Source of the DNA: Escherichia phage ELT1 | Sequence record: MZ892903.1 | Reading direction: 5' to 3' (one strand) | DNA: 64,000 nt | In this document: positions 36,979 through 43,383 of the stretch, one piece after another | Numbering within the stretch: the stretch's first letter is position 1 | How the letters are laid out: each line of letters opens with the position of its first letter | Notes under the pieces: model-generated | What the model saw: the letters and a program-made list of their open reading frames with translations, nothing else | What the model was told of the DNA's origin: nothing | Database searches by the model: none | Position numbers and translations under genes: made by a program

Positions 36979-40119
<3,141 letters not shown>

Positions 40120-40147: not shown

Positions 40148-42127
40148 ATGACTTTATTATCTCCGGGCATTGAGCTCAAAGAAACTACGGTTCAAAGCAC
40201 CGTGGTTAATAACTCTACTGGTACAGCAGCTTTGGCCGGTAAATTCCAGTGGGGTCCTGCTTTTCAGATTAAACAGGTTACAAACGAAGTAGATTTAGTT
40301 AATACTTTTGGTCAACCTACAGCTGAAACTGCTGACTATTTTATGTCTGCAATGAATTTCTTACAATATGGAAATGATTTGCGAGTTGTGCGCGCTGTCG
40401 ATAGAGATACCGCTAAAAACTCATCTCCGATTGCTGGTAATATTGAATACACAATTTCTACCCCAGGTAGTAACTACGCGGTTGGAGATAAAATCACGGT
40501 CAAATATGTTTCAGAAGATGTTGAAACAGAAGGTAAAATTACCGAAGTAGATGCTGATGGAAAAATTAAGAAAATTAATATTCCTACTGCAAAAATTATT
40601 GCTAAAGCTAAAGAAGTTGGCGAATACCCAACATTAGGTTCTAACTGGACTGCAGAAATTTCTTCATCTTCTTCCGGTTTAGCTGCAGTAATAACTCTTG
40701 GAAAAATTATTACTGATTCCGGTATTTTATTAGCTGAAATCGAGAGCGCTGAAACTGCTATGACAGCAGTTGATTTTCAGGCAAATCTTGAAAAATATGG
40801 AATTCCAGGAGTAGTAGCTCTCTATCCAGGCGAATTAGGCGATAAAATTGAAATTGAAATCGTATCTAAAGCTGACTATGCGAAAGGCGCTTCTGCATTA
40901 CTGCCAATTTATCCAGGTGGTGGTACTCGTGCATCTACTGCCAAGGCAGTATTTGGATATGGGCCGCAGACTGACTCACAGTACGCTATTATAGTTCGTC
41001 GAAATGATGCTATTGTTCAAAGCGTTGTTCTTTCAACTAAGCGTGGTGAAAAAGATATTTACGATAGTAACATCTATATCGATGACTTTTTCGCAAAAGG
41101 TGGTTCAGAATATATTTTTGCAACTGCACAAAACTGGCCAGAAGGATTCTCTGGAATTTTAACTCTTTCTGGTGGATTATCATCAAATGCTGAAGTATCA
41201 GCAGGAGATTTGATGGAAGCTTGGGACTTCTTTGCTGACCGTGAATCCGTTGATGTTCAACTGTTTATTGCGGGTTCTTGTGCCGGTGAATCTTTAGAAA
41301 CAGCATCTACTGTCCAAAAACACGTCGTTTCAATTGGAGATGCTCGCCAAGATTGCTTAGTATTGTGCTCACCACCGCGTGAAACTGTTGTTGGAATTCC
41401 TGTAACTCGTGCAGTAGATAATTTAGTTAACTGGAGAACTGCGGCAGGTTCATATACTGATAATAACTTTAATATTAGTTCAACCTACGCAGCAATTGAT
41501 GGTAACTACAAATATCAGTATGACAAATATAATGATGTAAATCGTTGGGTTCCATTAGCAGCTGACATTGCTGGTTTATGCGCGAGAACTGATAACGTTT
41601 CTCAGACTTGGATGTCTCCAGCTGGTTATAATCGTGGTCAGATTCTTAACGTTATTAAACTTGCTATTGAAACTCGCCAGGCGCAGCGCGACCGTTTATA
41701 TCAAGAAGCTATCAACCCAGTAACTGGTACAGGTGGTGATGGTTATGTATTGTATGGTGATAAAACAGCTACTTCTGTTCCTTCTCCATTTGATCGTATT
41801 AACGTTCGTCGTCTGTTTAATATGTTGAAAACGAATATCGGACGTAGTTCAAAATATCGTTTGTTCGAATTAAACAACACGTTTACTCGTTCATCATTCC
41901 GCACAGAAACTTCCCAGTACTTGCAGGGAATTAAAGCTCTCGGTGGAATTTATGAATATCGTGTAGTTTGCGATACAACAAATAACACTCCATCAGTAAT
42001 TGATAGAAATGAGTTTGTTGCAACATTCTACATTCAACCGGCGCGCAGTATAAATTATATTACTTTGAATTTCGTCGCAACTGCTACTGGTGCAGACTTC
42101 GATGAGTTAACTGGTCTTGCAGGTTAA
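40148..42127 (+). CDS. 18: tail sheath protein gp18
   Basis: 659 aa; synteny. Confidence 0.95.
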   Translation: MTLLSPGIELKETTVQSTVVNNSTGTAALAGKFQWGPAFQIKQVTNEVDLVNTFGQPTAETADYFMSAMNFLQYGNDLRVVRAVDRDTAKNSSPIAGNIEYTISTPGSNYAVGDKITVKYVSEDVETEGKITEVDADGKIKKINIPTAKIIAKAKEVGEYPTLGSNWTAEISSSSSGLAAVITLGKIITDSGILLAEIESAETAMTAVDFQANLEKYGIPGVVALYPGELGDKIEIEIVSKADYAKGASALLPIYPGGGTRASTAKAVFGYGPQTDSQYAIIVRRNDAIVQSVVLSTKRGEKDIYDSNIYIDDFFAKGGSEYIFATAQNWPEGFSGILTLSGGLSSNAEVSAGDLMEAWDFFADRESVDVQLFIAGSCAGESLETASTVQKHVVSIGDARQDCLVLCSPPRETVVGIPVTRAVDNLVNWRTAAGSYTDNNFNISSTYAAIDGNYKYQYDKYNDVNRWVPLAADIAGLCARTDNVSQTWMSPAGYNRGQILNVIKLAIETRQAQRDRLYQEAINPVTGTGGDGYVLYGDKTATSVPSPFDRINVRRLFNMLKTNIGRSSKYRLFELNNTFTRSSFRTETSQYLQGIKALGGIYEYRVVCDTTNNTPSVIDRNEFVATFYIQPARSINYITLNFVATATGADFDELTGLAG

Positions 42128-42165
42128 TTGATTATGGGGCTTCGGCCCCTATTCTCGAGGAAACA

Positions 42166-42784
42166 AGTGATTATTTCTAAGTTTGTTAAAGTGAAAATTG
42201 TACCATCAAATTTTAAACATTATCAATCAAAGGGTTATAAATTAACACCTCTTGGAGCGGTTAAACATGGATTTAGGTATTATGAAATTGATGTTAAAGT
42301 TGAAGACATTAAAGGTAGTACCGCGTATGTAAAATGCCGTTGCGATAAATGTGGAATTGAATATAACCAACGCATTGGAAGAAACACTGATATTTGTCGT
42401 GATTGCCGTCATAAAGATAAAATGCGCAATAATTCATATGGTTCCGCGAATAAAGGAAAAACAGTAGAATGTATGCATGGCGTAAATCATCCAAGATGGA
42501 ACCCAAATAAATCTGAAATGCGTGAATATATTTCATTGGTATATAAAGAAACTCGTAAGCATAAGAAAATTTGGTCAAAATGGCCAAATGCTGATAAAAT
42601 AGGAGTGTGCGGTACAAAAGGTGCTTACCAACTTGATCATAAGGTATCTATCAAATACGGTTTTGATAATTTAATTCCTGCTGAAATAATTGGCGGTATT
42701 AATAATTTAGAAATAATCACTTGGGAATCTAACCGAGAAAAGTCAAAAAGAAATAGTGTAGATCTTTGGGATTTACTAGAATGA
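42166..42784 (+). CDS. freestanding HNH endonuclease with CxxC zinc-binding pairs
   Basis: ORF track 42128..42784; first codons overlap a GGGGC-UUCG-GCCCC hairpin, so GTG 42166 (RBS AGGA) is the likelier start; C-terminal HNH-like ...YQLDHKVSIKYGFDNLIP...NNLEIITWESNREK; CRCDKCG...CRDCRH. Confidence 0.7.
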
Positions 42785-42810
42785 TTCTAAAGGCCTGTTT
42801 CGGCAGGCCA

Positions 42811-42877
42811 TATAAATACACTATATCCTTAATTCTTTAATTCTATATGCCCTAGGTTAAACATAGGGATATAAATA
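42811..42877 (+). promoter_or_regulatory. two T4 late promoters TATAAATA upstream of gene 19
   Basis: Exact TATAAATA at 42811-42818 and 42870-42877. Confidence 0.55.
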
Positions 42878-42891
42878 CTACAGAGGCTAAT

Positions 42892-43383
42892 ATGTTTGTA
42901 GATGATGTAACACGAGCGTTTGAATCTGGTGATTTTGCTCGACCTAACTTATTCCAAGTAGAAATTTCTTATCTTGGACAAAATTTTACGTTTCAATGTA
43001 AAGCCACTGCTTTACCAGCTGGTATTGTAGAAAAAATTCCAGTCGGATTTATGAACCGTAAAATTAACGTAGCAGGCGATCGTACATTCGATGACTGGAC
43101 TGTTACAGTAATGAACGATGAGGCACATGATGCTCGCCAGAAGTTTGTTGATTGGCAAAGCATTGCTGCTGGGCAAGGGAACGAAATTACTGGTGGAAAA
43201 CCAGCAGAGTATAAAAAGAGCGCTGTTGTTCGCCAATATGCTCGTGACGCTAAAACTGTAACAAAAGAAGTCGAAATTAAAGGTCTGTGGCCTACTAACG
43301 TGGGTGAACTTCAATTAGATTGGGATTCAAACAATGAAATCCAAACGTTTGAAGTAACTCTCGCTCTCGATTATTGGGAATAA
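42892..43383 (+). CDS. 19: tail tube protein gp19
   Basis: 163 aa; synteny. Confidence 0.95.
   Translation: MFVDDVTRAFESGDFARPNLFQVEISYLGQNFTFQCKATALPAGIVEKIPVGFMNRKINVAGDRTFDDWTVTVMNDEAHDARQKFVDWQSIAAGQGNEITGGKPAEYKKSAVVRQYARDAKTVTKEVEIKGLWPTNVGELQLDWDSNNEIQTFEVTLALDYWE

Follow-up and report, generated by a model that had tools for sequence, protein, structure and literature searches.

A probable freestanding HNH homing endonuclease gene between the tail sheath and tail tube genes of Escherichia phage ELT1

What occupies the long gap between the tail sheath gene (gene 18) and the tail tube gene (gene 19) of Escherichia phage ELT1? The window analysed here, a stretch of 64,000 nt from sequence record MZ892903.1, is a T4-like (Tequatrovirus) genome segment, and the gap measures 764 nt in it compared with 116 nt in T4. 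Our analysis indicated that the segment 42128-42784 within this gap is probably a freestanding gene for a homing endonuclease, one belonging to an uncharacterised HNH family, that of T6 “gp19.1” and PHROG 5104, for which we infer late co-transcription, nuclease activity, a target, and homing. The elements of this segment are the following.

42128..42784, + strand: inserted segment of 657 bp, in place of the 9 bp TACGGTGCA found at empty T4-type sites
42136..42149, + strand: hairpin GGGGC-UUCG-GCCCC, part of the insert, separated by 8 nt from the gene 18 stop codon and by 7 nt from the ribosome-binding site downstream
42157..42161, + strand: ribosome-binding site (RBS) GAGGA, 5 nt upstream of the GTG
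42167..42784, + strand: coding sequence of a 205-residue gp19.1-like protein (GTG start, TGA stop)
42189..42560, + strand: allele-specific module covering residues ~8-131, with the N-terminal beta/alpha domain, the zinc ribbon, and the linker
42341..42406, + strand: C4 zinc ribbon C59-x2-C62, C77-x2-C80 (alignment of 23 homologs)
42479..42508, + strand: conserved G-x-NHPRWNPN linker motif, NUMOD3-like (alignment of 23 homologs)
42626..42742, + strand: HNH (beta-beta-alpha-metal) core with YQLDH (D157, H158), N180, and N189-x2-K192

The ends of the insert were defined by alignment with T4 (AF158101) and RB3. In T4, TACGGTGCA directly follows the gene 18 stop codon. In the window, this stop codon (TAA) is located at 42125-42127 and the ATG of gene 19 begins at 42892, and the junctions of the insert were read directly as TAA/TTGATT... 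and ...GAATGA/TTCTAAAGG. The 3' end of the insert is the stop codon of its own open reading frame (ORF) at 42784, and from 42785 through to gene 19 the sequence was identical to T4. The insert is intergenic and disrupts no gene, and it was present or absent at one exact site between near-identical genomes; phage FriedrichZschokke, with an empty site, and the occupied window were 99% identical in the 200 nt at the 3' end of gene 18. Neither a target-site duplication nor terminal inverted repeats, the hallmarks of a transposon, were found at the insert ends. Twelve empty-site genomes were compared (T4, T2, FriedrichZschokke, OES_C-3, TB004, FN, RB51, and five IMG/VR contigs). The 116-nt junction was base-for-base identical in nine of them, including T4 and T2, and differed at 1-2 positions in the other three (RB51, IMGVR6, and one more). 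The original prediction for this locus, that the junction is usually short and that an optional gene has been inserted between genes 18 and 19, was thus borne out in its first part by T4 and the 11 further empty-site genomes and in its second part by the alignment of occupied with empty sites.

The gene was patchily distributed among close relatives. The population counts were taken from the GenBank phage collection, since scans of IMG/VR gave few T-even loci, and about 117 of roughly 500-700 Tequatrovirus records (~17-23%) were occupied, while the remaining several hundred, including T4, T2, and RB51, were empty. Among these patchily occupied genomes, gp18 and gp19 were 98-99% identical. The copies found with tblastn were intact and in a single piece, with no truncated remnants among those sampled, and the ORF is beyond chance, being intact in more than 100 phage records. 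Two alleles with the same boundaries were found at the occupied sites. Allele A, the element of the window, was present in 47 records, including RB3, RB5-7, RB9, RB10, pSs-1, HY03, HP3, and Sf22, and allele B in 70 records, including T6, PP01, ECML-134, and PST. The window protein was 98.6-99.5% identical to the ORFs of RB3, RB5, and pSs-1. Three records bearing other host names, MG010123.1 (“Staphylococcus phage SAJK-IND”, 32 kb) and PV654520.1 and OR584013.1 (“Pseudomonas phage vB_PSGBLB0006” and “PsgM02F”), had DNA 95-99% identical to this coliphage region and are probably mislabelled or contaminated.

Comparison of the two alleles revealed a modular pattern. The first ~60 nt (the hairpin, the RBS, the GTG, and eight codons) and the last ~225 nt (the HNH domain) were ~90-100% identical in DNA, and the middle ~370 nt was only ~40-50% identical; in the protein, the identity was 39% over the N-terminal part of 130 residues and 89% over the C-terminal part. 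The nearest relatives of the N-terminal part were the IMG/VR contig L018 and Acinetobacter phage AbTZA1 for allele A, and Gaprivervirus VR7 for allele B. Because the N-terminal parts have different nearest relatives, two deep subfamilies, as judged from these comparisons, share one site in one genus and have recombined. The exchanged N-terminal module is presumed to be the module of DNA recognition.

An ORF of about 206 residues with CxxC pairs and a C-terminal HNH-like segment (LDH...NNLEIITWESNREK) had been anticipated, and all of these elements were present in the 205-residue protein read from the GTG. In the alignment of 23 homologs, C59, C62, and C77 of the zinc ribbon were invariant and C80 was at least 90% conserved, and D157, H158, N180, L181, W186, N189, and K192 of the C-terminal domain were invariant. 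In a wider set of 148 more distant relatives, the conservation of D157, H158, N180, and N189 was still 90% or higher. The pair D157-H158 fits the usual catalytic His, with its preceding Asp, where strand 1 ends, and N180 (in NLE) and N189 (in NRxK) fit the structural Asn of strand 2 and the metal ligand in the helix, respectively. AlphaFold2 predicted the whole protein with a mean predicted local distance difference test (pLDDT) score of 83 and the C-terminal domain alone with a pLDDT of 87.6 and a predicted template modelling score of 0.75. In the model, the motif lay on a strand (residues 154-158), a second strand (181-185), and a helix (186-192), which is the beta-beta-alpha-metal topology. 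The closest structural matches were Gme HNH (PDB 4h9d) and GVE2 HNH (PDB 5h0o), with 9-16% sequence identity, followed at lower ranks by Cas9 HNH domains, McrA, T5 SciA, VcaM4I, DraIII, and Vvn; Foldseek found no PDB match at E < 1 when queried with the full model. The alignment of the family with the HNH domain of SpCas9 using hhalign was not significant, and its sole local alignment paired N180 and N189 with N854 and N863 of Cas9 (the SpCas9 query sequence agreed with the PDB entries). The zinc ribbon and the HNH-type C-terminal domain were therefore supported by the conserved motifs and the predicted fold, and on this basis, not on that of curated profiles, the C-terminal domain very probably adopts an HNH-type nuclease fold.

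The ORF matched the profile of PHROG 5104 over its full length (E = 3.2e-91, residues 14-217 of the 218-codon ORF), a family annotated as “unknown function”, and the family profile found 6295 cluster representatives at E <= 1e-3. Weak zinc-ribbon matches were obtained to the DUF4379 treble-clef and to mS66. HNH_5 matched at 0.22 in two of the 23 relatives. Among the 148 relatives, marginal Pfam matches were found to HNH_4 in three (best E 3.5e-4) and to HNH in one (E 0.003), and NUMOD3 matched two (best E 2.6e-4), counted per protein and not by position; DUF4379 matched ten and DUF7487 six. In the distant longer relatives P0117, P0121, P0141, P0169, P0173, and P0184, the HNH-like C-terminal domain was joined to Pfam DUF7487, which suggests that DUF7487, a family without an assigned function, is another N-terminal module of such nucleases. 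No paralogs of the ORF were found within the window.

The ORF at 42128-42784 on the + strand comprises 218 codons from a TTG, 216 from the ATG at 42134, and 205 from the GTG at 42167. The annotated ATG was correctly described as lying inside the upstream hairpin, the G of this codon (42134-42136) being the first G of the stem. The preference for a GTG with an RBS over the ATG also held, with the correction that the codon is located at 42167-42169 and not at 42166. Four observations led to this start: the RefSeq annotation of RB3 begins at the corresponding GTG; the alignment to the PHROG 5104 profile begins at codon 14 of the long ORF; homologs in other genera start with MII(S/T/D)K or MIT, with I2 invariant; and in PP01 and ECML-134 AAG replaces the upstream ATG and a 1-nt frame shift is present, with no alternative in-frame start. 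Because of these comparative data, the start of translation is assigned to GTG 42167. The upstream hairpin, with a folding energy of about -10.8 kcal/mol, was kept in all eight occupied Tequatrovirus loci inspected, and L018 and VR7 carried analogous hairpins of different sequence directly before AAGGA-GTG.

The same location was found far outside of Tequatrovirus. All full-length homologs with readable context had the sheath gene as their immediate upstream neighbour, and they came from at least seven phage genera (Tequatro-, Gapriver-, Dhaka-, Winkler-, Hadassah-, Ceceduo-, and Emdodecavirus). They included those of VR7 (annotated “19.1”), Bp7, CHI14, AbTZA1, Aeromonas phage AS-zj, and Sinorhizobium phage phiM7, as well as those of the IMG/VR contigs L012 and L018-L022; on three metagenomic contigs the homolog lay beside sheaths of 570, 669, and 1307 residues. 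The gene was present in L012 and missing from its sister genomes L011 and L013. In one arrangement, shared by Tequatrovirus, L018, and VR7, a lineage-specific hairpin, (A/G)AGGA, and a GTG start come after the gene 18 stop codon; in the other, that of Bp7, CHI14, AbTZA1, and L022, the gene was located after a late promoter and immediately before gene 19, with an ATG start. The identity of gp18 to that of the window was near-constant at 70-73%, while that of the gp19.1-like protein ranged from 37% to 60%, and therefore the family does not simply co-diverge with its hosts. Just upstream of the hairpin, an extended -10-like sequence was observed at L018:3960-3975 and L029:2365-2380 (TGGTATAAT in L018, GTTATAAT in VR7), a possible early promoter that has no counterpart in the window.

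The expression of the gene has to be considered together with the surrounding features of the window.

38284-40116: gene 17
40112..40119, + strand: late promoter TATAAATA preceding gene 18, from which transcription is presumed to extend into the insert
40148..42127, + strand: gene 18 (tail sheath), upstream flank, 98.7% amino acid identity to T4 gp18
42792..42809, + strand: hairpin GGCCUGU-UUCG-GCAGGCC, native to T4 and outside the insert (-12.8 kcal/mol, z -3.7)
42811..42818, + strand: late promoter TATAAATA, distal promoter of gene 19, native
42870..42877, + strand: late promoter TATAAATA, proximal promoter of gene 19, native
42892..43383, + strand: gene 19 (tail tube), downstream flank
43455: start of gene 20

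The window contained 22 copies of TATAAATA compared with 10.4 expected. No copy was found within the insert, and sigma-70-like matches occurred only at the level expected by chance. Because TATAAATA is missing from the insert and the nearest upstream copy is that at 40112, before gene 18, expression by late read-through is probable, and the gene, without a promoter of its own, would be transcribed as the tail of the gene 18 message. The stable UUCG hairpin just past gene 18 may act with the GTG start to keep the expression low. Located 8 nt past the stop codon, this hairpin may also protect the gene 18 message at its 3' end, the native UUCG hairpin of T4 being located about 10 nt past the stop codon. 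The 205-residue protein would bind DNA via its N-terminal domain, the C4 zinc ribbon, and the NUMOD3-like linker, and the C-terminal HNH site (D157, H158, N180, N189) would nick or cut. In a mixed infection, the enzyme would cut a related genome with an empty 18-19 junction, most likely at a target spanning ...GGTTAA/TACGGTGCA/TTCTAAAGG..., which the insert disrupts; this junction is the most parsimonious target because occupied and empty genomes do not otherwise differ in their flanks. Via T4-type recombinational repair, the gene and some flanking gene 18 sequence would then be copied into the cut genome.

Such copying of flanking sequence could leave traces in gene 18, and one stretch close to the insertion point was unusually variable.

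42038..42090, + strand: hypervariable, almost wholly synonymous gene 18 patch (codons ~631-648), 38-90 nt upstream of the insertion point

The patch occurred in at least four haplotypes with up to 12 differing positions, all of them synonymous except T639Q. A 45-nt stretch of it was the most diverse of gene 18 in 16 Tequatrovirus genomes (pi 0.186 vs the gene mean of 0.045), a contrast inflated by a sample partly picked for variation in this region. The window-type patch was carried by 35 of the 47 allele-A records and the PP01-type patch by at least 60 of the 70 allele-B records, and the empty sites mostly had the T4-type or FN-type patch. This linkage is compatible with co-conversion or hitch-hiking and pinpoints neither the target nor an immunity determinant; the patch may represent a footprint of co-conversion or of the target site. 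An immunity haplotype strictly tied to the insert, consisting of the 12 synonymous differences from T4 at 42046-42090, was ruled out by mixed combinations: allele A was found with the T4-type patch in YwIITB1 and, by identity, in sb1, and with a non-window patch in sb3, and the empty-site phages FriedrichZschokke, T2, and HY01 carried the window-type patch. In gene 19 of a different T4-like lineage, the occupied L022 (4688-4730) and the empty L011 and L013 (3001-3043) showed nine synonymous differences in the first 14 codons, which adjoin the inserted gene in L022; further downstream, L022 was identical to L011 and L013.

The interpretation as a homing-endonuclease gene draws on the exact presence/absence polymorphism, the patchy distribution, the intact copies, and the site fidelity combined with phylogenetic incongruence. 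In addition, each allele is linked to a particular haplotype of the 3' end of gene 18, the pattern expected from co-conversion, and the hairpin just upstream of an unsequestered RBS is, by analogy, the arrangement of seg43(25). Several results weigh against this interpretation. The detection of HNH homology by profile search, on which the original prediction had let its assignment depend, failed for the window protein, since none of the curated HNH profiles (Pfam PF01844, PF13395, PF14279, etc.) matched it even at E <= 10. Searches of Pfam and NCBIfam with the single protein gave only sub-threshold zinc-ribbon noise, and sequence and profile searches of the PDB, the latter with the 23- and 148-sequence profiles, found zinc fingers and the treble-clef of trypanosomal mS66 only and no HNH. 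The folding energy of the upstream hairpin was unexceptional compared with shuffled sequences (z -0.9), and in the predicted fold the hairpin sequestered neither the RBS, which was unoccluded, nor the start codon. The gene 18 patch was not strictly tied to occupancy, 12 of the 47 allele-A records having other haplotypes, including the T4 type, and every patch haplotype was also found with empty sites; the cleavage site could not be derived from the patch and insert data. In some metagenomic contigs, the gene lay within 2 nt of both neighbours in an operon-like manner. No publication on this ORF and no expression data were found.

Some of these points would suit an HNH nuclease that is kept without self-spread, as an accessory weapon against the DNA of competitor phages or of the host or as a DNA-binding regulator, with its patchiness resulting from ordinary recombination and loss. 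The tight packing in some lineages agrees with such a role, as do the very long-lived tie to one locus across families, the ORFs that were intact wherever sampled, and the loose linkage of the insert to the flanking “immune” haplotype. We regard it as unlikely in view of the all-or-none polymorphism at one exact junction, the two competing alleles with identical boundaries, the linkage to the flanking haplotype, and the incongruence with the gp18 phylogeny, which together form the classic signature of intronless homing. For the seg and mob genes of T4, exclusion and homing are not mutually exclusive (PMC2993671). An ancestral tail-module gene, inherited vertically and repeatedly lost, immobile and perhaps not an active nuclease, would account for the same position of the gene in the distant phages phiM7 and AS-zj and beside sheaths of 570-1307 residues, as well as for the failure of the curated HNH profiles. 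It is an improbable explanation for a gene that occupies only about a fifth of the Tequatrovirus records when gp18 and gp19 are otherwise almost identical, and repeated independent deletions would not yield the 116-nt junction shared by all 12 empty sites with at most 1-2 nt of difference. The insertion point also varies by genus, either right after gene 18 or right before gene 19, the protein identity spans 37-60% while the gp18 distance stays constant, two deep subfamilies coexist in one genus, and the catalytic residues are invariant.

The structural neighbours of the model raise a further alternative, a terminase-associated HNH packaging factor as in HK97-type (gp74) and GVE2 phages, since Gme HNH and GVE2 HNH, the closest matches, presumably have a terminase-associated role. 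This is very improbable for a gene that is missing from T4, T2, RB51, and most Tequatroviruses, of which T4 and T2 package normally; gp17 of T4 carries its own nuclease and packages by a headful mechanism. Moreover, the gene lies between the sheath and the tube, separated from gene 17 by gene 18, and its product has an extra N-terminal zinc-ribbon DNA-binding module typical of site-specific enzymes. The remaining alternative concerns the extent of the mobile unit. The original prediction had described a complete mobile cassette in which the hairpin, the HNH gene, a terminator stem-loop, and two late promoters that restore the expression of gene 19 were imported together. The stem-loop after the ORF and the two promoters were indeed present (42792-42809; 42811 and 42870), and all listed elements physically lie between genes 18 and 19. 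The sequence 42785-42891 is, however, base-for-base that of the empty sites of T4 and T2 and lies beyond the insert boundaries, which refutes the joint import and leaves it next to no credibility. Because of this identity, the stem-loop and promoters are not cargo of a cassette; by sequence, the hairpin at 42792-42809 is the native terminator or stabiliser of gene 18, and both promoters are the native promoters of gene 19.

With the homing-endonuclease reading preferred over these alternatives, a broader and more tentative possibility can be drawn from the conserved location. The gp19.1 family may represent a single lineage of homing endonucleases with a lasting attachment to the sheath-tube junction throughout the T4 superfamily, in phages ranging from the Straboviridae of enterobacteria to Emdodecavirus of Sinorhizobium and to those with sheaths of 570-1307 residues; it would persist by module swap and leave its footprint in the patch. 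The swap may consist in the exchange of the N-terminal recognition module with the leader and HNH domain being kept, as between alleles A and B. If this is true, the gp19.1 family is a natural example of re-targeting by domain swap, and the most diverse 45-nt stretch of gene 18 is the evolutionary footprint of an arms race.

Among known systems, the gp19.1 proteins of T6, RB3, PP01, VR7, and others (PHROG 5104) belong to the same family and occupy the same 18-19 locus as the window gene, T6 and PP01 carrying allele B (39% identity in the N-terminal 130 residues) and the window allele A. The name gp19.1 is used in the VR7 and JE01 records; the database labels were mostly “hypothetical protein” or “gp19.1”, with a few automatic labels of HNH, homing, or type II restriction endonuclease. 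MobA-E of T4 are freestanding HNH homing endonucleases located intergenically between conserved genes, MobE being the tested example (PMC2988022, Table 1). Compared by description, the window gene resembles them in being freestanding, intergenic, patchy among close relatives, of HNH type, and, as we infer, expressed with host-gene transcripts, but it differs in its 18/19 locus, in the order of its domains, with the DNA-binding module first and the HNH last, and in being invisible to Pfam HNH models. A census of homing-endonuclease genes in 2010 listed no “other HNH” for RB3 (PMC2993671, Table 5); RB3 carries a gp19.1-like gene, which was apparently uncounted in it. Phage HNH enzymes have been described as a “beads-on-a-string” arrangement of small modules (PMC2988022). 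In architecture, not in sequence, the window protein can be likened to I-TevIII of RB3 and the I-HmuI type, which also combine a beta-beta-alpha-metal unit with small modular DNA-binding units; these enzymes are intron-encoded, whereas the window gene is freestanding. Gme HNH (97 residues) and GVE2 HNH (92 residues), in contrast, are small single-domain nicking endonucleases without an N-terminal zinc-ribbon module.

The layout of the leader also has a precedent. In seg43(25), a freestanding endonuclease gene of Aeromonas phage 25, a very stable hairpin is located immediately upstream of the RBS and leaves it uncovered (PMC2988022). The same hairpin-before-RBS layout was present in the window, L018, and VR7, and the regulatory effect is putative in both systems; unlike the window protein, seg43(25) is a GIY-YIG enzyme at another locus. 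No relevant publication on gp19.1, or on an endonuclease encoded in the 18-19 interval, was retrieved from the literature, and the review of T4 mobile elements was silent on the locus. The proposed mode of action would therefore match, by analogy, that of the freestanding mob- and seg-type genes of T4, in a distinct sequence family outside the Pfam HNH models.

If the enzyme is active, a new sequence family that is invisible to Pfam HNH models would be added to the T-even HNH homing endonucleases, and a common polymorphism in the highly conserved tail block, found in about one-fifth of the sequenced Tequatroviruses, would be explained. The points of extra interest are the module swap between alleles A and B at one site and the fidelity to the locus across families. 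With their shared catalytic domain and different presumed recognition modules, the two alleles offer a ready system for studying the change or retention of specificity, marker exclusion, and mosaicism in co-infection, and many Tequatroviruses are therapeutic-phage candidates. The annotation of the locus can also be corrected with respect to the start codon (the GTG), the product (a putative HNH homing endonuclease), and the downstream hairpin and promoters, which should be assigned to gene 19.

Additional DNA was also observed on the other side of gene 19. In several relatives outside Tequatrovirus, namely Bp7 (L034, 4170-4751), L009, L018, and L019, ~600-700 bp of additional DNA separated the tube gene from the portal gene, and the ORF at this position in Bp7 gave a marginal match to the SegE GIY-YIG model of Pfam (E 0.0046, below threshold). 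The 18-19-20 block therefore seems to have been entered repeatedly by endonuclease-like genes. Gene 20 itself (portal) was annotated as two adjacent coding sequences in Bp7 (L034, 4809-6382) and Ptacy1496 (L040, 3332-3865), and this split could be due to a frameshift, a sequencing error, or an interruption.

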